Source: a virus (lineage: Duplodnaviria > Caudoviricetes). From it: a stretch of 62,756 bases of DNA. The stretch spans positions 1 to 62,756 of the IMG/VR virus record IMGVR_UViG_3300034105_003214; one strand, 5' to 3'. Position numbers and translations under genes: made by a program. Shown piece by piece: positions 33,326 to 50,976 of the stretch (its first letter is position 1; every line of letters begins with the position of its first letter). The notes under the pieces were generated by a model that made no database searches, was not told the origin of the DNA, and saw only the letters and a program-made list of their open reading frames with translations.

Positions 33326-33442
33326 TAGCAAAAAAACTTGCATCGAATAAAAAGATGTAGTATATTTGCACAAGATTTAAGAATATGTGGGTTTTTTTAA
33401 TAAAATCCACATATTTATAAATCACAAGTTCTTAAACATTAT

Positions 33443-33815
33443 GGGGGTAAACGGTATCGACAGGGTATGGTCGTGAATTGTAAGCATGTAGTGCTAGATT
33501 GGAAGCACTTAAATCTGTCTATTAAAAAATTGAATTGACAACGTATTTAACGTATCAGAAAATTTCTTGAACGAAACATCAGTGTTTTCAACAAGAGAGG
33601 TTGCAGTAGCCTAACAACTGCCAATTGTGGTAATCCACTGGATGGTGATAAATCACTAGAACCCACTTTTGTATGAGTGGTTAAGTCGGATACAAGTCAT
33701 TATAGATATGGGACTAGCACTATCTTGAAAGATTGCCAGTTAAATGAATTGGATAAACATGTAGAAAGCCTTTTGTGAATGCTTTTGGACAGGGGTTCGA
33801 CTCCCCTTGCCTCCA
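33443..33815 (+). ncRNA. ssrA: tmRNA
   Basis: GGGGGTA/TGCCTCC acceptor stem with G3-U70, TATCGAC, GCATGT/ACATGT helix, T-arm AGGGG-TTCGACT-CCCCT; tag frame 33537-33614 DNVFNVSENFLNETSVFSTREVAVA*. Confidence 0.92.
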
Positions 33816-33930
33816 CTCTTAGTGATTCTGCTCAACAATAACCTTTGAGACAGAAATAACAAACCTCTGATAAGTCGCTTTTTCAGAGGTTAAATTTATC
33901 AAATAAAAAAAGGGCTTAATAGCCCTTTAA

Positions 33931-34296: not shown

Positions 34297-34398
34297 TATA
34301 AAAATAGTTACAAAAAAACTTGTTATATCATATATTATTTAGTATATTTGCATATAATTAATAAACACACGTTCATACACATAATAAAAATATCTAAA

Positions 34399-34635
34399 AA
34401 GATGGGTTCTGCAACAAAAAAACAGACAAACTTAAGAGGCTAATTTGGTATGGAAGATATTTTATCTTCCCATGATTAGAAAAAATGGTAATTTCTCCAT
34501 TCAAAAGAAAACCGTCAACCACCCCAAAAGGTGCAAGTAGGATGTAGTTGAATAATAGTAAACTCTCGCCAAAGCAAAGCCGAAGACGTAAAATGGGTTA
34601 ATCCGCTGGGATGAAAAATACAAATAACCATCTTG
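34399..34635 (+). ncRNA. Putative ncRNA B of the TNCWGCAA family
   Basis: AAGATGG/CCATCTT closing stem, TTCTGCAA box, internal hairpins, no long ORF. Confidence 0.55.
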
Positions 34636-34647
34636 AGATAAATTTTA

Positions 34648-34707
34648 TGGGACAGGACATTTAACTTGGACAGCCAAAAGGCAGAGTTGTAAGTCTGGAC
34701 AGTCCCA
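34648..34707 (+). ncRNA. Putative structured RNA
   Basis: TGGGAC/GTCCCA closing stem, internal GCC-AAAA-GGC hairpin, repeated GGACA. Confidence 0.35.
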
Positions 34708-34722
34708 AATTAAATTGACAAA

Positions 34723-34773
34723 AGAATCAGTTCAGCAATCAAACAACACTTTATATGGAAAAAAGTGATTCTG
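34723..34773 (+). ncRNA. Putative ncRNA C of the TNCWGCAA family
   Basis: AGAATCA/TGATTCT stem, TTCAGCAA box. Confidence 0.55.
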
Positions 34774-34783
34774 GTCAACAATA

Positions 34784-34855
34784 TTACTATAAGCATGAGG
34801 GAAGTGCGGCATCCACTGGGGGTGAGGGTAAAAGGTTCGAGTCCTTTATAGTAGT
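34784..34855 (+). tRNA. tRNA-Pro(GGG)-like, poorly paired anticodon stem
   Basis: TTACTAT/ATAGTAG acceptor, GCAT/GTGC D-stem, CTGGGGG loop, AAAGG-TTCGAGT-CCTTT T-arm. Confidence 0.5.
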
Positions 34856-34862
34856 CTAATAA

Positions 34863-34937
34863 TGCGGAAGAGTGAAACGGAATATCACACTAGTCTCATA
34901 AGCTCGTAATATTGGGTTCGACTCCCATTTTCCGCAA
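34863..34937 (+). tRNA. tRNA-Met(CAT)
   Basis: TGCGGAA/TTCCGCA acceptor, CTCATAA loop, TGGG-TTCGACT-CCCA. Confidence 0.75.
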
Positions 34938-40242: not shown

Positions 40243-40617
40243 ATGGCAAAATATTTGGCAAAATTTAGCAGCGTGGTAAATGAAATCGAAATTAGTGGTT
40301 TTATTGTCATGAATGAAAGAGAAGTTGAAAACTTCGAAGAATTAGCATTAAGCATTACATGGGATTTCGTATATGAATTTGGTGAAGATAACCAATTTCA
40401 ATTAGAATTTTCAGATGGTGAAGATTTATTATCTAGGATTGAATTTAAAGAAATATCCTTAGATGAAGCAAAAACATTAAAACGATTGTTTAACGATGAA
40501 TTTGGAACCTTTATAGGTGAAGCATTCTTAGAACAAGTTATAGGTGAAGAAGATTCAGATTTCGATGATGAAGATGAAGACGACTATGACGATATTAATT
40601 ATGAAACAGATTATTAA
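40243..40617 (+). CDS. Acidic hypothetical protein
   Basis: D/E-rich ORF. Confidence 0.6.
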   Translation: MAKYLAKFSSVVNEIEISGFIVMNEREVENFEELALSITWDFVYEFGEDNQFQLEFSDGEDLLSRIEFKEISLDEAKTLKRLFNDEFGTFIGEAFLEQVIGEEDSDFDDEDEDDYDDINYETDY

Positions 40618-41479
40618 ACATTACCAACAACCTAATGGAATTAGCTGCGGTCCAACATGTATAATGATGGCCTACGAAGCACTTCCACAAACACCTAAAA
40701 AACAGCACTACTCAATCATGGAAATTTGTGATTTTTGTGGTACTGATAATATAACTGGTACTCCACCAGAAAGACTTGAAAAAGGTATGAATGCATTGGG
40801 TATGAATTATATCCATCATGTAAAATCGCAAGAACCATTCCAACATTTAAAATCAGTTCTAGATAATGGTAATTTACCAATGCTTAGAACTTTTACTCAT
40901 GGTATTCCACATTGGATTATTATAAGTGGGTATGATGATAATAAATATTATGCAAATGACCCATGGCAAGGTGAAATGACATATAGTGAAGAAGAATTAA
41001 GTACTATTTGGATTGGAAGACACTATGAATTTTATGAAATTGAAATGCTTGTAATAAAACAAGGTATACCAAAAGAAAGACTTAATGAAATTATGGAATG
41101 GTCGTTCCCTTACTTTACACACGTTATTACCGAAGGTTATTTCAATATAGTTGTTGAAAATCAAACTGACCTAGAAAAATCAGCAATGATAATTGATAGG
41201 GATAATAATATACGTGGTGCTTATTTGATAGGTAATAGTCAATTACGTCATTTAGATTTTCATGATTTAAAAGGTGTTGAAGGTGTTCTTTTAGCAATTG
41301 ATGAATCCATAAGAGGTAGAGGTTGGGGAAACAGACTTAAAGACTACCCTAAAACTCTTGGTGTTGATTATATTTGGGGACAACAAGCAAAAGGTCTAAA
41401 TAATATAAAAGATTGGTTAAAACGCAGAGAATTGATTAATGAAAGTGGTGGTGTATATATAACAGCTGAATTTTTTTAA
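40601..41479 (+). CDS. Peptidase C39-like domain fused to a GNAT-like domain
   Basis: QQPNGISCGPTC...HWIIISGYD...NDPW; IDESIRGRGWGNRL; ATG at 40601. Confidence 0.7.
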   Translation: MKQIIKHYQQPNGISCGPTCIMMAYEALPQTPKKQHYSIMEICDFCGTDNITGTPPERLEKGMNALGMNYIHHVKSQEPFQHLKSVLDNGNLPMLRTFTHGIPHWIIISGYDDNKYYANDPWQGEMTYSEEELSTIWIGRHYEFYEIEMLVIKQGIPKERLNEIMEWSFPYFTHVITEGYFNIVVENQTDLEKSAMIIDRDNNIRGAYLIGNSQLRHLDFHDLKGVEGVLLAIDESIRGRGWGNRLKDYPKTLGVDYIWGQQAKGLNNIKDWLKRRELINESGGVYITAEFF

Positions 41480-42071: not shown

Positions 42072-42689
42072 ATGAAAAAAATTATATTAAACGAAGTTGA
42101 TAAAAAAGAAATCATCAATCAAAGAGAAAAAGTTATTGTTGAAAACTTTGCTAAAACATTTAATTCTATCAAACGTGTTGATGAAGAAACGATAAAACCA
42201 AAAGATATTTCTAAAAAATTTATTATTTATCCTAATTTTAAAGGTGTAGACCCTTCACCTATAATTGGACAAAATAAAATTATAAATGTGGCAGATGCAT
42301 TAGGAAACGAACCTAATAAAGATTATAAATACTTCACATCAGGTAAATTACCTGATGGAACCGAGGTAAAACAATATGTGGATAATATGATTCAAAACGC
42401 TAAAAATGGTGGTTGGAAATCTTTTAAACCAGTAGTAGCAATCGAACATCCATTACTTTCAGGTAAATATGCTGTTATAGATGGAAATCATAGATTAGGT
42501 GCTTTTAAAATGGGAAAAATACCTCAAATAAATGCTACAATAATAAATTATGATGATATATTATTAGCCACTCCCGAAAGTATATGGCAAGATGGTAAAA
42601 CACCAGAAACCATTAGTTTAAATGACGCTAAAGATAAAGGTATTGATTTAAAACAATATTTTACAACAAAAGATTTACAATTAAATTAA
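42072..42689 (+). CDS. ParB/sulfiredoxin-like domain protein
   Basis: FKPVVA...YAVIDGNHRL. Confidence 0.6.
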   Translation: MKKIILNEVDKKEIINQREKVIVENFAKTFNSIKRVDEETIKPKDISKKFIIYPNFKGVDPSPIIGQNKIINVADALGNEPNKDYKYFTSGKLPDGTEVKQYVDNMIQNAKNGGWKSFKPVVAIEHPLLSGKYAVIDGNHRLGAFKMGKIPQINATIINYDDILLATPESIWQDGKTPETISLNDAKDKGIDLKQYFTTKDLQLN

Positions 42690-42834
42690 AAAAACTTGCA
42701 TAGTATTTAAACTTTTTGTATCTTTGTACATATTTAATAATAAACACAAAAAGATTAAAAAAAAAATAGCAAAAAACTTGACTTGTATTAAATAAGTTAG
42801 TATATTTGCAAAGAAATTAAAAACAAACAAAAAA

Positions 42835-42936
42835 ATGACAACAATTAACATACATATGATATCGATTAGCAATTGGAGACGTAATAGTCGCCCAGTAGCA
42901 GGTATGTGTAATTGTCAAGGTGGTACGGAAGTATAA
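42835..42936 (+). CDS. Putative attenuator leader peptide (33 aa) of the tRNA operon
   Basis: MTTINIHMISISNWRRNSRPVAGMCNCQGGTEV*, after promoter box 42801 and an A-rich start context; codons 4-19 match the downstream tRNAs. Confidence 0.75.
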   Translation: MTTINIHMISISNWRRNSRPVAGMCNCQGGTEV

Positions 42937-42958
42937 CTCAAAACAAAATATAACAATT

Positions 42959-42994
42959 AAAACCTGACTACATCAAAACTAGTCAGGTTTTTTT
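42959..42994 (+). terminator. Attenuator terminator (3:4 hairpin)
   Basis: AAAACCTGACTA-CATCAAAAC-TAGTCAGGTTTTTTT. Confidence 0.85.
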
Positions 42995-43000
42995 ATTTTA

Positions 43001-43180
43001 ATGAATATGGGAAATCTAGTGAGAAATTTAGGAAAAGAAAAAACTGTTAACTTAATGAAAGATTTTGACCTCATAGTTGACAAGTATAGAAAGATAGCTG
43101 ATGCAAGTGGTTATCATGGTGAATTAAGATTTCAAAAAGAAGGTGGGTTTACCATTATCTTTGTTGATATAAAAGAATAA
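43001..43180 (+). CDS. Hypothetical 59-aa protein, first gene after the attenuator (not in ORF track)
   Basis: MNMGNLVRNLGKEKTV...IIFVDIKE*. Confidence 0.5.
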   Translation: MNMGNLVRNLGKEKTVNLMKDFDLIVDKYRKIADASGYHGELRFQKEGGFTIIFVDIKE

Positions 43181-43183
43181 AAT

Positions 43184-43275
43184 GGAAGGGTAAGCCGAGT
43201 TGGTCTAGCGGCAGCCGCCTTGAAAGCGGAGGGTCCCGTAAAACGGATGTGTGGGTTCGAGTCCCACTCCTTCTT
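43184..43275 (+). tRNA. tRNA-Ser(TGA)
   Basis: CCGC-CTTGAAA-GCGG, long variable arm, GTGGG-TTCGAGT-CCCAC. Confidence 0.85.
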
Positions 43276-43281
43276 CAAAAT

Positions 43282-43352
43282 ACGTCTATGGTGCAACGGT
43301 AGCATCACGCTCTCCAAAAGCGTTGATGGGGGTTCGAATCCCTCTGGACGTG
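43282..43352 (+). tRNA. tRNA-Trp(CCA)
   Basis: ACGTCTA/TGGACGT; ACGCT-CTCCAAA-AGCGT. Confidence 0.9.
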
Positions 43353-43356
43353 CAAA

Positions 43357-43463
43357 GCTAATCACCGCAAAAATGCGGAGAATAGCCAGATAATCACCGC
43401 ATAGTTTATAACTTTTAAAGTTACAGGCGATTATCACCGCAGAAATGAGGTAAAGATAAACTA
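43357..43463 (+). repeat. Three ATCACCGCA copies within a structured spacer
   Basis: Copies at 43361, 43393, 43433; CCGCA-AAAA-TGCGG hairpin. Confidence 0.7.
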
Positions 43464-43468
43464 AATAT

Positions 43469-43540
43469 GGTATTTCAAGCTTTAAGGTGAAGCGTCAGAC
43501 TGTGAATCTGAAGAACTCGGTTCGATACCGTGGTTATACC
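43469..43540 (+). tRNA. tRNA-His(GTG), mismatched acceptor stem
   Basis: G-1; TCAGA-CTGTGAA-TCTGA; CGG-TTCGATA-CCG. Confidence 0.7.
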
Positions 43541-43611
43541 CAAATATAATAAAAAAATGAAAAAAGAATTTGATATGCTTTGAGGTCTACTAAACAATAG
43601 ACTGAAAAGTT

Positions 43612-43803
43612 ATGAGTGTAAACACAAACAGAATGAAGTTGAAAAAAGCAACTTGTTCTAAAGATTACAGAATTATTTGGTTAAAATTTGAATACCCACC
43701 TTATTGGGATGAGGGTGTTTATTACAGAAAAGGTCAGTTCTCTCACAAATATAGAGAACATAAAACTTGGAAGTATAACCGAAAAACACAATGGAAGTCA
43801 TAG
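43612..43803 (+). CDS. Small basic hypothetical protein within tRNA cluster
   Basis: ...KTWKYNRKTQWKS; preceded by minigene 43557-43583. Confidence 0.55.
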   Translation: MSVNTNRMKLKKATCSKDYRIIWLKFEYPPYWDEGVYYRKGQFSHKYREHKTWKYNRKTQWKS

Positions 43804-43814
43804 ACTTCCAAAAT

Positions 43815-43886
43815 AGGTGTGTGGTGAAATGGTTATCACGCAAGACTGATACTTTTGTATTTTGGGTTCGAGTCCCAACATGCCTA
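43815..43886 (+). tRNA. tRNA-Ile(GAT)
   Basis: AGGTGTG/CATGCCT; CAAGA-CTGATAC-TTTTG; TTGGG-TTCGAGT-CCCAA. Confidence 0.8.
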
Positions 43887-43894
43887 CTAAATAT

Positions 43895-43968
43895 TGCCTT
43901 GTAGCTCAGATGGTTAGAGCACCGCACTCATAATGCGTAGGTCTTGGGTTCGAGCCCCAGCGAGGCAA
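43895..43968 (+). tRNA. tRNA with CAT anticodon (Met or lysidine Ile2)
   Basis: TGCCTTG/CGAGGCA; CGCA-CTCATAA-TGCG. Confidence 0.85.
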
Positions 43969-44019
43969 CAATATCAGCCAAATGTTGTATTTAAAGTATA
44001 GATTTGGCTGGTAATAAAT

Positions 44020-44093
44020 TCCTCAGTAACTCAATTGGTTAGAGTGCCACTCTGTTAAAGTGGAAGTTCCAGGTTCAAAGCCTGGCTGAGGAG
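44020..44093 (+). tRNA. tRNA-Asn(GTT)
   Basis: TCCTCAG/CTGAGGA; CCACT-CTGTTAA-AGTGG. Confidence 0.9.
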
Positions 44094-44098
44094 CGTAA

Positions 44099-44170
44099 TG
44101 GCGAGGGTTATTGGAAAACGTTCATCCCTCATAAAGATGAATAAATGGGCTCGGCTCCCATACTCGCTAC
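44099..44170 (+). tRNA. Degenerate tRNA(CAT)-like element
   Basis: TGGCGAG/CTCGCTA; TCATC-C-CTCATAA-A-GATGA; atypical T-loop CTCGGCT. Confidence 0.45.
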
Positions 44171-44174
44171 AAAT

Positions 44175-44247
44175 GGCTCTATCGTTCAACTGGATAGGAC
44201 TTAGCACTACGAATGCTAGAATTGGGGTTCGAATCCCTGTAGGGCTA
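44175..44247 (+). tRNA. tRNA-Arg(ACG)
   Basis: TAGCA-CTACGAA-TGCTA; GGG-TTCGAAT-CCC. Confidence 0.88.
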
Positions 44248-44296
44248 CTTGACTTTTTTGTCCTTTATGTTATATTTATTATAAAAGATATAACAT

Positions 44297-44917
44297 ATGG
44301 CAAGAAAAGTAAGAAATATACATTACATATATAAAACAACATGTAATGTAACAGGAAAATGGTATGTTGGTATGCATAGTGCATATACATTAGAAGATGG
44401 ATACATGGGTAGCGGAAGAATACTAAAACGTAGTATAAGAAAATATGGTGTGGAAAAACATACTAAAGAAATTCTAGAATTTTGTGATTCTAAAGAAGCG
44501 TTGGTTTTTAGAGAATCCGAGATTGTTACTAAAGAATTGATTTCTGACGGTAAATGTATGAACCTTAAAGAAGGTGGTTGTGGTGGGTTTATTAGTTATG
44601 AAATTTCAAAACGTGGTGGTGACGCTCTTAAAAATAAATTAGAACAAGATTTAGAATTTAGTGAGAAACATAGAAAGATAGTTTCTAACAATATGAAACA
44701 ATTACATTTAGATAAAAAATCTTATGATTGGATTGGAAAAAATCACTCAGAAGAAACTAAAAAAATAATGTCTGAACAAAGAAAAAATACAGGTATTGGT
44801 GAAGCAAATTCACAATATGGTACTTGTTGGATAACCAAAGATGGTGAGAACAAAAAAATAAAAAAAGAAGTCCTTGAAATTTGGCTTGAACAAAACTGGG
44901 TAATAGGTAGAGCATAA
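44297..44917 (+). CDS. Seg-like GIY-YIG homing endonuclease inside the tRNA cluster
   Basis: YIYKTT...WYVGMH, YMGSG, NLKEGG, HSEETKK. Confidence 0.85.
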   Translation: MARKVRNIHYIYKTTCNVTGKWYVGMHSAYTLEDGYMGSGRILKRSIRKYGVEKHTKEILEFCDSKEALVFRESEIVTKELISDGKCMNLKEGGCGGFISYEISKRGGDALKNKLEQDLEFSEKHRKIVSNNMKQLHLDKKSYDWIGKNHSEETKKIMSEQRKNTGIGEANSQYGTCWITKDGENKKIKKEVLEIWLEQNWVIGRA

Positions 44918-44923
44918 TTATTT

Positions 44924-44996
44924 GCCTTCATAGCATAAATGGAAATGCAACATCCTTCTAAGATGTATAATCGGGGTTCGAATCCCTGTGGGGGTA
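44924..44996 (+). tRNA. tRNA-Arg(TCT)
   Basis: ACATC-CTTCTAA-GATGT; GGG-TTCGAAT-CCC. Confidence 0.88.
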
Positions 44997-45003
44997 CTAA
45001 ATT

Positions 45004-45090
45004 GGAGAGTAGACTAATATTGGTTTGTGGTGGCACCCTGCTAAGGTGTTCCGTGTAATAGCGGTGAGGGTTCGATTCCCTTGCTCTCCG
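45004..45090 (+). tRNA. tRNA-Ser(GCT)
   Basis: GGAGAGT/GCTCTCC; GCACC-CTGCTAA-GGTGT; long variable arm. Confidence 0.85.
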
Positions 45091-45131
45091 CACTTTTATA
45101 TAAATCTACATATTTATCAATAAACACTATT

Positions 45132-46961: not shown

Positions 46962-47528
46962 ATGAAAAAATTAATTAGACAACAACTTAGAGAATCATTA
47001 TTACCAGAAGCAATTGCTGGTGGAGAATATCATGTCTTTCATGGTAGCCCAACCAAGATAAATAAATTTATTGATGATTTTGTTGGTGGTCAAGAAGCAT
47101 TTGATAGAGAAGGTCCTGGTATTTATTTTACAACATCAGAAGAAGAGGCAAATCGTTATGGTGAAAACGTTTATAGTGTAATTTTAAAACCTAATATTTT
47201 ATTTGATGAGGTTCCTATAAACAAAGTTAAAATAAGACCTTTTATGAAAAAATTAGCTATGATGGCTGATGATTGGGAAGGTTCGGCACAAAATTGGGGT
47301 GAAGACCCAATAAGAGGTATTCAAACATTTATTGAAGATTCTATGGAATATAATGATAATGAAAAAGATTGTATTCTCCAAGTATGGATTGATTTTTATA
47401 GGTATAATCCAGTTGAATTTGTTAGAAATTGTGTATCGTTGGGTATTGATGGTATTATAGTAAATAAAGACTATGAAGATATAAAACATATAATAGTTTA
47501 TAATCCTTCTATAATTAATATTAAATAA
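46962..47528 (+). CDS. ADP-ribosyltransferase-like (ART-PolyVal-type) protein with IRQQLRES leader
   Basis: VFHGSP, GPGIYFTTS..EA.RYG, GIDGII, IVYNP. Confidence 0.6.
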   Translation: MKKLIRQQLRESLLPEAIAGGEYHVFHGSPTKINKFIDDFVGGQEAFDREGPGIYFTTSEEEANRYGENVYSVILKPNILFDEVPINKVKIRPFMKKLAMMADDWEGSAQNWGEDPIRGIQTFIEDSMEYNDNEKDCILQVWIDFYRYNPVEFVRNCVSLGIDGIIVNKDYEDIKHIIVYNPSIINIK

Positions 47529-47565: not shown

Positions 47566-48762
47566 ATGAAAAAAAATATTTTAAATATAGAAATAATTAG
47601 ACCAGAACAAGAATTAATCATTATGGTTGGTGTTTCTGGTTCTGGTAAAAGTAGTAAAGCTAGAGAGATAGTAGGTAAAGGAGTTATTCACTCAACCGAT
47701 TCTGTTATAGAATCCTTAGGTGATTATAACTATTTTTTTAAAAAAATGATTGAATCAGGGAATTTTTCTGATTTATCCAGAGCTCATTTAATTAATATTA
47801 ATAATTCAATAAATTCAATTAAAAATGGTATTACCCCTTGTATTATTGATAACACTAATTTAAGTAAAAGTGAAATAAAACAATATGTTGAAAATGGGTT
47901 ATTACTTGGATTATCTGATGATAATATTAAAATTATTAAAATTGGAATTGATGATTTATCACCAGAAGAATTAACTAAAAGAAATTCACACGGTGTACCA
48001 TTAGAAAAGATAATAAAAATGATTCAAAAATATAAAAATTTGGGTGAGTTAACACTAAAAAATATTTTAGCATCTAAAGATATCTATCATAATAAAGTTG
48101 GTGTGTATAACTTAGTAAATTTAAAAAATGGTAAAGTGTATATAGGTAGTACTGGTAAATCTTTATCGTTAAGGAAAAAACAACACTTTAATAATTTAAA
48201 AAATGGTACTCATGAAAATCCAATTTTGCAAAAATCATACAATAAACATGGGTTAGAAAGTTTCAAATTTGAAATAATTGAAAGTTTTAATAATATAAAA
48301 ATAGAAAAATTATTAAAATTGGAAGAGAAATATATTTTAGAAAATGATTCAACAAACAGAAATTTTGGTTATAATATTTGTTCTGTTAGTCAATCTAGAT
48401 TAGGTACTAAATGGTCTGAAGAATCTAAAATAAATAGATGTGGAATAGGAAACCCAATGTTTGGTAAAGGTGATGATAGAAAAGGTAATAAAAACCCAAT
48501 GTTTGGTAAAAATGTATCTGAAGAAACTAGAAATAAACTATCAATAATTGGAAAAGGTGTAAAAAAACCAATGGTTAGTGAAAAATTAAGTGTTCCAATA
48601 GTTCAATTAGATATGTATGGTAATAAAATTAAAGAATTTAAATCTGGTGTTGAAGCTTTTAACGAAACAAAAATTTTTCATATTAATGCTGTATGTAATG
48701 GAAAAAGAAAACAAGCTGGTGGTTATGTATGGATTTTTAAAAAAGATTATACTGATAAATAA
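47566..48762 (+). CDS. AAA_33/PNK-like kinase fused in frame to a GIY-YIG homing endonuclease
   Basis: GVSGSGKS, IIDNTN, RNSHGVP; then GVYNL...VYIGST, NPMFGK x2, KRKQAGGYVW. Confidence 0.85.
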   Translation: MKKNILNIEIIRPEQELIIMVGVSGSGKSSKAREIVGKGVIHSTDSVIESLGDYNYFFKKMIESGNFSDLSRAHLININNSINSIKNGITPCIIDNTNLSKSEIKQYVENGLLLGLSDDNIKIIKIGIDDLSPEELTKRNSHGVPLEKIIKMIQKYKNLGELTLKNILASKDIYHNKVGVYNLVNLKNGKVYIGSTGKSLSLRKKQHFNNLKNGTHENPILQKSYNKHGLESFKFEIIESFNNIKIEKLLKLEEKYILENDSTNRNFGYNICSVSQSRLGTKWSEESKINRCGIGNPMFGKGDDRKGNKNPMFGKNVSEETRNKLSIIGKGVKKPMVSEKLSVPIVQLDMYGNKIKEFKSGVEAFNETKIFHINAVCNGKRKQAGGYVWIFKKDYTDK

Positions 48763-48767
48763 AAATT

Positions 48768-49157
48768 ATGGAAGGAGAAACTAATGTATTGTATAGTTGT
48801 GTGTTATTAGATGAAGAATCTAGAAAAATATTATTAGATAATTTAAAATATTTAATACCAGATAATTTCAAAATCATTGCACATCATATGACAATAACCA
48901 TGGGTGAATTAAAAGATAAAAGTATTTTGGGTACTGAACAACTTCTTGCAGTAACTAAAGTTGGTATTAGTGATATGGCAATGGCTGTTGCGGTTCAAAG
49001 TGATATTGAAACCAAAAATAAAATACCACACGTAACGGTTGCTATTAATCCAGATGGGGGTAAACCTGTAATGAGCAATGATATTACTGATTGGCAAGAT
49101 ATAAGAATGTTTATATTATCAGGTGAAGTAACTGAAATAAAAAAGAGAGCTATATAG
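48768..49157 (+). CDS. 2H phosphoesterase (Trl1 cyclic-phosphodiesterase-like)
   Basis: HHMTI and PHVTVA motifs; SN..TDW. Confidence 0.75.
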   Translation: MEGETNVLYSCVLLDEESRKILLDNLKYLIPDNFKIIAHHMTITMGELKDKSILGTEQLLAVTKVGISDMAMAVAVQSDIETKNKIPHVTVAINPDGGKPVMSNDITDWQDIRMFILSGEVTEIKKRAI

Positions 49158-49167
49158 CTCTCTTTTT
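49139..49167. terminator. Bidirectional terminator
   Basis: AAAAAGAGAGCTA-TA-TAGCTCTCTTTTT. Confidence 0.65.
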
Positions 49168-49505: not shown

Positions 49506-49847
49506 ATGAAAAATGAAGATAGACACTTAGACCTTAGTGCTAAGTTTATAGAAATGGGTCAAACCCTTATGTTAGAAGGTAAAAATTCTAAAGATTTAAT
49601 GATATCACAATCGGGTGGTGTTTTAGTTTTGTTGGGTAGTTTGATGTATGATGAAAAAGATATTAATTTACTTAGTCAAATATGTTCCATGTTTTCTGCG
49701 AAGAAAATAGTTGAAAATATGGAAAGAAATAATAATGATTATACAAATTATTTAAAAGATAAACACAAAAGTGAAACCTATGATGATTTTATTAAAAGAA
49801 TAAATGATTTAAGAAGAAAAAATGGTGATGAACCAATTGATGAATAA
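49506..49847 (+). CDS. Hypothetical protein
   Basis: ORF. Confidence 0.55.
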   Translation: MKNEDRHLDLSAKFIEMGQTLMLEGKNSKDLMISQSGGVLVLLGSLMYDEKDINLLSQICSMFSAKKIVENMERNNNDYTNYLKDKHKSETYDDFIKRINDLRRKNGDEPIDE

Positions 49848-49851
49848 TATT

Positions 49852-50976
49852 ATGTTAACAATACAAAAATATATAATTAAACACGGATTAGAAAAAACAA
49901 TCTTAGACTTTCAATTAAAGGTTAAGAGATACCCTTCAAAAATTCTTTTAAAATATGACCAGCTAGTGTCACCAACTCTTATGGGGTTGCCAGAGATGCA
50001 AGATTGTCGTGGGTTAATACTTGAAATAGATACATGGAAAGTAATGTCACTAGCATTCAGAAAATTTTTTAACTCACAAGAGAATAACGCAGCTAAAATA
50101 GATTGGAATACTGCTAGTGTGTTAGAAAAACTAGATGGTACCATGATTCAAGTATATTGGGACTGGAATAAAGAAACATGGTTTGCTGCTACTACTGGTA
50201 CAGCCGAAGGTGAAGGTGAAGTAAACAATAAAATGGGTACCACATTCAATGAATTGTTTTGGGATACTGTAAATAACAAATATAATTTTAATAATTGTTT
50301 GTTAGATAAAAATCACATATACGTTTTTGAATTAACTACACCATATAATATAGTGGTTAAACCACATGGTGAATCATCTGCTACAATCCTTACAGTTAGA
50401 AACAGAGAAACTCTAGTAGAACTATCTGGAAAAGACTTGGAAATGGTTGCTATATCACTTGGGTTACCACTGGTTAAAAAGTTTGACTTGAATGCGAAAG
50501 ATATAGGTGCTTTGTTACATACATTTGAAGGTATGCCATGGTCAGAAGAAGGGTATGTTGTTGTGGATGCTAATTTTAATCGTGTTAAAATAAAAAATCC
50601 AGCGTACCTGGCTGTTCACCACTTAAAAGGTAAAACAGCTGAACATAATATCCTTACAATAGTTAAGACTAATGAGATTGAAGAGTTCGCATCAACTTTC
50701 CCAGAAAGAAAAGATGAACTTTATAAGTTAAAAGAAAACTACGATAAATTAACTGAAACGTTAAATGTTACGTGGGAAATATTGAGATTAGCTAAACCTA
50801 AAGAAATAACTCCAGCTGAAAAAAAGAGATATGCAATGAAAGTTTTTGAGGTATGTGATAACACTACCTTAAAACCATTTACAGGTTTATACTTTGGATT
50901 GGCAGAAGGTAAAATAGAGTCTGTTGAAGACTTTATATTTAAATACGATGATAAATTATTATATAAAATGCTTTAA
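49852..50976 (+). CDS. RNA ligase 1 (T4 Rnl1-like)
   Basis: CRGLIL, FRKFFN, EKLDGT, FELTTP.N.IV, EEGYVV, RVKIKN..Y. Confidence 0.85.
   Translation: MLTIQKYIIKHGLEKTILDFQLKVKRYPSKILLKYDQLVSPTLMGLPEMQDCRGLILEIDTWKVMSLAFRKFFNSQENNAAKIDWNTASVLEKLDGTMIQVYWDWNKETWFAATTGTAEGEGEVNNKMGTTFNELFWDTVNNKYNFNNCLLDKNHIYVFELTTPYNIVVKPHGESSATILTVRNRETLVELSGKDLEMVAISLGLPLVKKFDLNAKDIGALLHTFEGMPWSEEGYVVVDANFNRVKIKNPAYLAVHHLKGKTAEHNILTIVKTNEIEEFASTFPERKDELYKLKENYDKLTETLNVTWEILRLAKPKEITPAEKKRYAMKVFEVCDNTTLKPFTGLYFGLAEGKIESVEDFIFKYDDKLLYKML

Follow-up and report, generated by a model that had tools for sequence, protein, structure and literature searches.

INTRODUCTION

Leader-peptide attenuators are known from the amino acid operons of enterobacteria (trp, his, pheA, thr, and ilvGMEDA) and from pheST, where control of a synthetase through the pheM leader responds to one amino acid on a bacterial chromosome. 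Why phages carry transfer RNA (tRNA) genes has been debated for some fifty years, the proposed answers being codon compensation, renewal of a host pool in decay, and evasion of defenses that cut tRNA; in phage T4, Pnkp and Rnl1 mend tRNA that has been cut by the PrrC anticodon nuclease. Here we describe a leader open reading frame (ORF) and intrinsic terminator that precede a tRNA cluster in a tailed-phage contig of 62,756 bases (IMG/VR record IMGVR_UViG_3300034105_003214), the whole of which we refer to as the window. The conserved module, a covarying antiterminator, a set of sensitive codon positions, and sister leader classes, all of them computational results, support an initial annotation that had read this locus as attenuation of the trp or his type. 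We conclude that the element is probably a working ribosome-mediated transcription attenuator that gates the phage tRNA operon.

Like the amino acid operon attenuators (PMC1183508), the locus combines a short leader that would be translated and carries regulatory codons with an intrinsic terminator and an antiterminator that excludes the terminator and is freed by stalling. Several amino acids are mixed in its leader, as they are in the thr and ilv leaders. It differs from these systems in that its cargo is tRNA genes rather than biosynthetic enzymes, that seven amino acids and nine tRNA species are represented in one run, that it occurs in phages with Bacteroidota-type promoters, that it has four sister classes, and that the 1:2 lock (the pairing of leader segments 1 and 2) is weak. 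As in pheST/pheM, a translation-apparatus gene stands under a leader rich in the cognate codon, although here the genes are phage tRNA genes and the amino acids many. The locus also resembles T-box riboswitches, in which the state of a particular tRNA decides between terminator and antiterminator. A T box, however, binds uncharged tRNA directly and without translation, whereas here a reading frame is conserved and no Rfam T-box match is found at gathering score.

Phage tRNAs have been described as a means of escape from tRNA-targeting defenses (PMC10264068, PMC11555353, PMC11464382). As in T4, the tRNA cluster studied here lies near genes for a kinase, a 2H phosphodiesterase, and an Rnl1-type ligase; unlike here, no leader-peptide control of the tRNA genes is described for T4 or for the defense-escape tRNAs, as far as we searched. 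A long tRNA array of Anabaena is induced by translational stress, so that there, too, impaired translation brings extra tRNA genes into expression; the array has no codon-matched leader in that description, and the terms "leader," "attenuat-," and "terminator" are absent from the main text (PMC8421152). We found no published leader-peptide control of tRNA genes in the literature searched, in which subscription journals were largely uncovered. The mechanism is that of a classical attenuator, and what is new, as far as we searched, is the tRNA cargo, the many-input run, and the four-way division of the amino acids.

RESULTS

The leader codons match the downstream tRNA genes

The contig has a G+C content of 29%, and its long ORFs lie nearly all on the plus strand. 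The initial annotation had placed a 33-codon leader ORF and a strong terminator ahead of the tRNAs. The ORF is present as described, its codons 4 to 19 are identical to those listed, and the terminator has a 12-base-pair stem (42959-42970 with 42980-42991), a 9-nucleotide loop, and seven T residues from 42988; a simple hairpin scan with a loop limit of 8 overlooks it. This layout needed amendment only where a small ORF and the genes inserted in the cluster had been overlooked. ARAGORN calls nine tandem tRNA genes on the same strand at 43184-45091, a phage tRNA gene cluster that starts four bases past the stop codon of the small ORF. Eight of the nine pass the Rfam gathering score, while Ser-GCT at 45004 is absent from the Rfam list and is called by ARAGORN only.

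The nine downstream anticodons read a set of 18 codons, with ATA counted for the CAT tRNA. That this tRNA, which may be a lysidine-modified Ile2 tRNA or a Met tRNA, decodes ATA is an assumption. All 16 codons from 4 to 19 belong to the set and all nine tRNA species are used, exactly as had been claimed. Elsewhere the set accounts for 28.5% of codons in 57 long ORFs and 31% of six-frame triplets, and the next-longest in-set run in the six frames comprises 10 codons and 4 species. Since runs of at least 16 codons are expected only ∼0.0009 times, none of 200 second-order Markov genomes reached 16 (maximum, 15), and the run is unique in the six frames, it is not a chance occurrence.

A promoter at 42801 had been proposed from a TAnnTTTG match. 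TAnnTTTG alone is not enriched in the window (133 sites, versus 116 ± 11.5) and was not used as evidence. The longer motif TTGAC-N16-22-TAnnTTTG is rare, with 4 matches in the window versus 0.62 expected; one of these is the site ahead of the leader (P2), and the motif recurs upstream of most related leaders. An A-rich stretch separates P2 from the leader ORF.

The leader module is conserved among related phages

Relatives were collected through the small ORF (14 viral loci) and through a degenerate DNA pattern of the peptide core (21 viral contigs of 27 to 369 kb). The main set holds 22 distinct leaders, the window's included, and a looser pattern yielded 69 metagenome stretches, in which 64 leaders are complete and 40 of these distinct. 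The upstream ParB-like ORF was tried as another route and led only to a nonsyntenic, tRNA-free locus (L001). Named phage records gave no match by blastn of the leader region or tblastn of the upstream ORF, and scanning genome contigs for the leader pattern turned up no copy in a host or prophage. Among public runs, lake-water DNA runs contain the stretch. Four RNA-library runs held only small shares, as contigs of relatives, and a 769-nucleotide RNA-library contig (X22) spans leader, terminator, tRNA-Ser, and tRNA-Trp; none of this was counted as evidence, as contigs cannot show transcripts, ends, or strand.

In all 22 distinct leaders the ATG, the frame, and a length of 31 to 33 codons are kept, and insertions and deletions, which fall between codons 19 and 23, are always multiples of three. 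Each leader is followed, 20 to 28 nucleotides past the stop codon, by a hairpin with a T tail, the stem sequences differing from one leader to another. Downstream tRNAs were called for 21 of 23 leader rows, and apart from one Thr-TGT every one is a Ser, His, Trp, Ile, CAT, Asn, or Arg tRNA. Infernal adds several odd tRNAs that ARAGORN missed, namely, Ile-GAT-like and CAT genes with long variable arms, an Asn gene, and Ser-TGA-like genes, so the clusters are more uniform than the ARAGORN calls imply. Such genes, missed or mislabeled by ARAGORN and detected by Infernal, were seen in L002, L015, L023, L024, and L029; they comprise the long-arm Ile-GAT-like and CAT genes and Ser-TGA-like genes whose anticodon loop is odd.

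Codons 4 to 19 are nearly invariant, third positions included, although one Ser position alternates between TCG and AGC or AGT. Where residues do change, they tend to stay within the codon set: 10 of 13 distinct amino acid changes among the 22 leaders are in-set, compared to 37% expected for single-base changes (P = 0.004, a value that, like the others given here, overstates independence, the leaders being mutually related). These in-set changes include I to N, I to S, M to R, M to I, H to R, H to I, and H to S. Two loci, L010 and L026, have only a Ser-TGA tRNA within 4.7 kb of the leader. On the minus strand of L021 (7641-9380), two leaders of this class lie 1.5 kb apart with a single His tRNA between them; the first of the two shows several differences, all inside the codon set.

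We also compared codon content with tRNA content from leader to leader. TCT is confined to runs whose cluster includes a Ser-GGA tRNA (3 of 5 distinct leaders with this tRNA, versus 0 of 16 without; P = 0.0075). In L013 and L102, where neither detector finds Ile-GAT or CAT tRNAs, the ATA and two ATT codons have been lost. No relation appeared for Ile-GAT with ATT/ATC, CAT with ATA, Thr-TGT with ACN, or Arg-CCT with AGG, a null result weakened by the tRNAs that ARAGORN misses.

An antiterminator covaries with the terminator

The initial annotation had described alternative pairings, with segment 2 able to pair either with segment 1 (1:2) or with the terminator side (2:3). Both exist in the window as described, by folding and by repeat listing. 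The first part of segment 2 (2a, 42895-42903) is complementary to the 5′ arm of the terminator, and the second (2b, 42902-42915) can pair with segment 1 or with the ACAATTA at 42953-42959. The structure in the window is stronger than that of shuffled sequences (z = −3.96).

Across relatives, the leader segment that follows the run is variable in sequence and yet keeps its complementarity to the 5′ arm of its own terminator. Pairing of segment 2a with its own arm averages −11.1 kcal/mol versus −7.9 kcal/mol with the arms of other leaders, and none of 20,000 permutations was as good. RNAalifold, run unguided on the leader alignment, returns this same helix. In it, 85.5% of cells pair (66.5 ± 2.8 in shuffles), 22 cells carry two-sided changes (7.2 ± 2.1 in shuffles; 0 of 500), and the covariation score is 0.54, compared to 0.22 in shuffles (none of 500 reached it) and 0.02 to 0.20 with the partner slid by 1 to 3 columns. 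Its covariation with the terminator 5′ arm marks segment 2a as an antiterminator.

We then folded the transcript as it stands before the 3′ arm is made, with a 28-nucleotide ribosome footprint placed at each codon. With the A site at codons 2 to 17, the antiterminator forms in 22 of 22 leaders, with 7 to 11 arm bases paired, much as the initial annotation had inferred for a ribosome stalled in the run. With the A site anywhere from about codon 19 to the stop codon, it mostly does not form, provided that no pair spans the ribosome. The positions at which a ribosome frees the antiterminator thus end where the run of in-set codons ends. The proposed 1:2 anti-antiterminator appears in the minimum-energy fold of the window, and one compensatory change could be read from the alignment in L013; in most relatives it is weak. 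In silico, then, the locus has a leader ORF, cognate regulatory codons, an intrinsic terminator, and an exclusive antiterminator.

Sister leaders match tRNA clusters for the remaining amino acids

Five jumbo-phage records with a leader of the window's class (class I) hold 22 to 65 tRNA matches each, in several clusters of fixed make-up. Class I clusters comprise Ser, His, Trp, Ile, Met, Asn, and Arg tRNAs; class IIa, Cys, Val, and Leu; class IIb, Phe, Glu, Asp, and Ala; and class III, Pro, Gln, Tyr, Thr, Gly, and Lys. Combined, the four classes cover all 20 amino acids; the window holds class I only.

The other clusters likewise have a short ORF of their own in front, in the same arrangement, namely, a promoter-like site, an A-rich stretch, 24 to 36 codons, a terminator-complementary segment, a terminator, and then the tRNAs. 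Each of these ORFs has a run in the amino acids of its own cluster, for example ...LVLLSLCLLVV..., ...FDFAFFAAEED..., and ...TYQTQYQPKGGKP.... When codons 2 to 20 were scored in one genome, the matches to the own cluster numbered 17, 9, 10, and 16 of 19 for the four classes, against 0 to 6 of 19 for other clusters. Further pattern scans found that 8 of 8 class III and 11 of 11 class IIb leaders precede matching tRNAs. Ribosome-mask folds of the sister leaders behave alike in 16 of 17 cases, the remaining row (L058) being void because the wrong T run was taken. The first tRNA begins 5 to 20 nucleotides past the T tract in 16 of 21 sister leaders, which leaves no room for a separate promoter; these tRNAs would therefore be made only by read-through of the terminator.

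The module is thus conserved in relatives, where leaders written in the codons of their own tRNAs also precede the three other clusters. The expectation that leader codons track each genome's tRNA content is borne out between the four classes and only partially within class I. CTA-anticodon tRNAs (of the amber suppressor type, labeled Pyl by ARAGORN) were seen upstream of the class I module in L015, L018, L025, L026, L045, and L050, and some leaders in jumbo phages with such tRNAs terminate in TAG.

Organization of the region and genes downstream of the tRNAs

The features of the region are collected in Table 1. P1 is a candidate site assigned by the promoter consensus. The small ORF has homologs in 14 viral loci at 60 to 89% identity and no match in Pfam, PHROG, Atlas, or PDB; its AlphaFold model, one helix and a hairpin, is of low confidence (mean predicted local distance difference test score, 66.7). 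Three copies of a AATCACCGCA-like motif lie between tRNA-Trp and tRNA-His (43360-43450), and a similar stretch is present in L002.

TABLE 1 Features of the leader-tRNA region and of the genes that follow it
Feature	Position	Strand	Basis or remark
ParB-like ORF	42072-42689		Directly upstream of promoter-like sites
Promoter-like site P1, CTTGCA-20 nt-TATCTTTG	42695-42726	+	Read from sequence; TAnnTTTG match at 42719-42726; geometry as P2
Promoter-like site P2, TTGACT-18 nt-TATATTTG, ahead of leader	42778-42808	+	Match to TTGAC-N16-22-TAnnTTTG
Leader ORF, 33 codons, ATG to stop TAA: MTTINIHMISISNWRRNSRPVAGMCNCQGGTEV	42835-42936	+	ORF list
Regulatory run, codons 4-19, all decoded by downstream tRNAs	42844-42891	+	Genome-wide outlier
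Segment 1 (ACAATTAACATAC), partner of segment 2b	42841-42853	+	Minimum-energy fold; inverted-repeat listing
Segment 2	42895-42915	+	2a plus 2b
Intrinsic terminator: ACAATTA copy, 5′ arm, loop, 3′ arm, T tract	42953-42999	+	Folding, repeat search
Conserved small ORF, first cistron past terminator	43007-43180	+	57 amino acids from conserved ATG; 59 from 43001
tRNAs Ser-TGA, Trp-CCA, His-GTG, Ile-GAT, CAT, Asn-GTT, Arg-ACG	43184-44248	+	ARAGORN, Rfam
63-amino-acid ORF inside tRNA cluster	43612-43803	+	ORF list
Promoter-like site ahead of GIY-YIG endonuclease	44249-44276	+	Motif scan
GIY-YIG homing endonuclease inserted in tRNA cluster	44297-44917	+	PHROG 314, E 3.5e-34; weak Pfam SegE match
tRNAs Arg-TCT and Ser-GCT, end of cluster	44924-45091	+	ARAGORN both; Rfam only Arg-TCT
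ORF with ART-PolyVal ADP-ribosyltransferase domain	46962-47528	+	E 1.2e-08; between tRNA cluster and repair genes
Kinase (AAA_33) split by GIY-YIG/NUMOD3 endonuclease, then 2H phosphodiesterase (tRNA_lig_CPD)	47566-49157	+	Pfam
Strong terminator-like hairpin after phosphodiesterase gene	49140-49167	+	Hairpin scan
Rnl1-type RNA ligase	49822-50976	+	Pfam RNA_lig_T4_1, E 1.4e-15

Pfam domains of a kinase, a 2′,3′-cyclic phosphodiesterase, and an Rnl1-type ligase are present downstream of the cluster, which amounts to a T4-like healing-and-sealing set, and a further ligase follows on the same strand. The kinase-phosphodiesterase gene follows the cluster in 18 of the 20 class I loci that have at least 6 kb of downstream sequence, and the Rnl1-type ligase is syntenic in many relatives. 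In relatives the kinase-phosphodiesterase is a single protein of 279 to 318 amino acids, which in the window is split by the GIY-YIG/NUMOD3 homing endonuclease. By the T4 precedent, tRNA would be the substrate of these enzymes. We regard the repair genes as context, not proof, for tRNA damage as the trigger.

In L036 and L081, leader and terminator stand directly ahead of repair genes and not of tRNAs. The order in both (L036, 1235-5771) is a Cys-rich 63-amino-acid ORF, kinase-phosphodiesterase, NUDIX, Rnl1-type RNA ligase, and a second RNA ligase.

Other features of the stretch

A full-length transfer-messenger RNA (tmRNA) gene lies at 33443-33818 (Rfam, 92.4 bits, versus a cutoff of 47), with the ARAGORN tag ANCGNPLDGDKSLEPTFV and a promoter-like site ahead of it at 33338-33368. 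Between a promoter-like TATATTTG at 34343 and a lone CAT tRNA (34864-34936), some 480 nucleotides hold no convincing ORF. No Rfam family matches 34343-34936 at gathering score, and this ORF-poor stretch may be a structured RNA of a new kind. The ORF at 40544-41479 has a Peptidase_C39-like domain (E 2.6e-08 to 4.9e-09), and its C-terminal part looks, by eye, like an acetyltransferase.

DISCUSSION

Proposed mechanism

We propose that transcription would begin at the promoter-like site near 42801 and that the 33-codon leader would be translated. Codons 4 to 19 would require the tRNA species encoded downstream, that is, Ser-UGA, Trp, His, Ile-GAU, the CAU type, Asn, Arg-ACG, Arg-UCU, and Ser-GCU. 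If any one of these in its charged form were scarce, the ribosome would linger within codons 2 to 17 and leave segment 2 (42895-42915) free to pair with the 5′ arm of the terminator, and the polymerase would continue past the terminator through the small ORF and the tRNA genes, perhaps as far as the repair genes. With a good supply, the ribosome would cover segment 2 up to the stop codon, the hairpin at 42959-42991 would form, and transcription would end. The outcome would be a multi-input negative feedback on the tRNA pool for which any single input suffices. The trigger may be anticodon nucleases or some other shortage.

Observations that weigh against attenuation

Several observations weigh against this proposal, beyond the relatedness of the leaders noted above. 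The evidence for the attenuator is entirely computational and comes from related sequences. Conservation at third positions exceeds what a match to the codon set would by itself demand, and a recently spread module or constraints on the RNA may contribute to it. Of the 21 variants in the wider metagenome collection, only 13 are in-set (P = 0.023), and out-of-set residues occur at positions 4, 6, 18, and 19, so that the constraint, judged from these sequences, appears strong in the middle of the run and more relaxed toward its ends. L036 and L081 carry the leader with no tRNA within 4.5 kb, and L014 has the small ORF without a leader. L013 and L102 retain ATG and two ATT codons without Ile-GAT and CAT tRNAs, and the extra Thr-TGT and Arg-CCT tRNAs of some clusters have no counterpart codons in the leader; within class I, tracking at this finer level thus appears partial.

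The folding results add to this. The minimum-energy fold of the full-length leader always retains the terminator, and the switch must therefore be kinetic, as in the trp operon. Free RNA, truncated ahead of the 3′ arm, favors the antiterminator by 1.3 to 9.1 kcal/mol in 17 of 22 leaders, and the 1:2 pairing comes within 0.8 kcal/mol of the antiterminator in only about 5 of 22. This preference makes the classical 1:2 lock doubtful, and an untranslated leader may be read through. As to transcription, the sequence TATCTTTG occurs at 43156 inside the window's small ORF, and the promoter-like site at 44249-44276 lies ahead of the endonuclease and of the two final tRNAs. Finally, since these codons are also decoded by host tRNAs, what the sensor reads would be the pool as a whole.

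What the switch may sense, and alternative readings

What opens the attenuator is less certain than its existence. It is conceivable, though we would not call it probable, that the four sister attenuators are closed-loop controllers of the tRNA pool, each reading the supply of exactly the tRNAs of its own cluster and together spanning the 20 amino acids, with class I tied to healing and sealing, such that loss or cleavage of tRNA through anticodon nucleases or decay of the host pool would bring replacement and repair on demand. We put forward just as tentatively that the attenuator responds specifically to host defenses that cut tRNA.

The same switch might instead answer to another signal, with amino acid starvation or global translation failure acting through the charged fraction, as a general stress response or late-infection timer. 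A stalled ribosome is blind to whether a tRNA is missing or uncharged, the four classes span all amino acids, and, given the preference of untranslated free RNA for the antiterminator, any loss of translation would switch the operon on. We nevertheless consider this unlikely, as the cargo is tRNA genes with each leader matched to its own cluster, extra tRNA would give no relief from amino acid starvation, and class-specific codons would be needless in a general timer.

Less probable by far is that the ORF, followed by an ordinary terminator, is there for its product (INIHMISISNWRRNS), a functional micropeptide or nascent arrest peptide, and that its codon match is a side effect. The order of residues, and not just their composition, is nearly invariant across diverged phages, and some variants at position 4 are conservative hydrophobic residues (V, L, F), both of which would suit a working peptide. 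Three unrelated peptide classes, however, follow the same rule with other amino acids, and several of the substitutions seen (among them I to N, I to S, H to R, H to I, and M to R) fall within the set despite being radical at the protein level. The C-terminal third, moreover, varies freely while complementarity to the terminator is retained, and the tRNAs abut the terminators.

An RNA-only element (a riboswitch or a T-box-like tRNA-binding leader) with an incidental reading frame would account for the very high nucleotide conservation, third positions included, and for a structure stronger than shuffles, but it is scarcely credible given that no Rfam family, T-box included, matches 42700-43180 at gathering score, that the ATG, reading frame, and stop position are conserved, with indels only in multiples of three, that the switch of Ser codon family preserves the amino acid, and that the coherence of the four classes lies at the amino acid level.

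Implications

If the attenuator reading is right, this would be the first case, as far as we searched, of attenuation controlling tRNA genes, and the speed of decoding would feed back directly on the synthesis of tRNA. A clear ribosome-mediated attenuator would also be added for phages with promoters of the Bacteroidota type. The division of the 20 amino acids among four classes would provide natural codon-specific sensors of tRNA availability, which are potential reporters. The old question of why phages carry tRNAs would become testable, since the condition that opens the attenuator would be the purpose for which these phages keep their tRNA genes.

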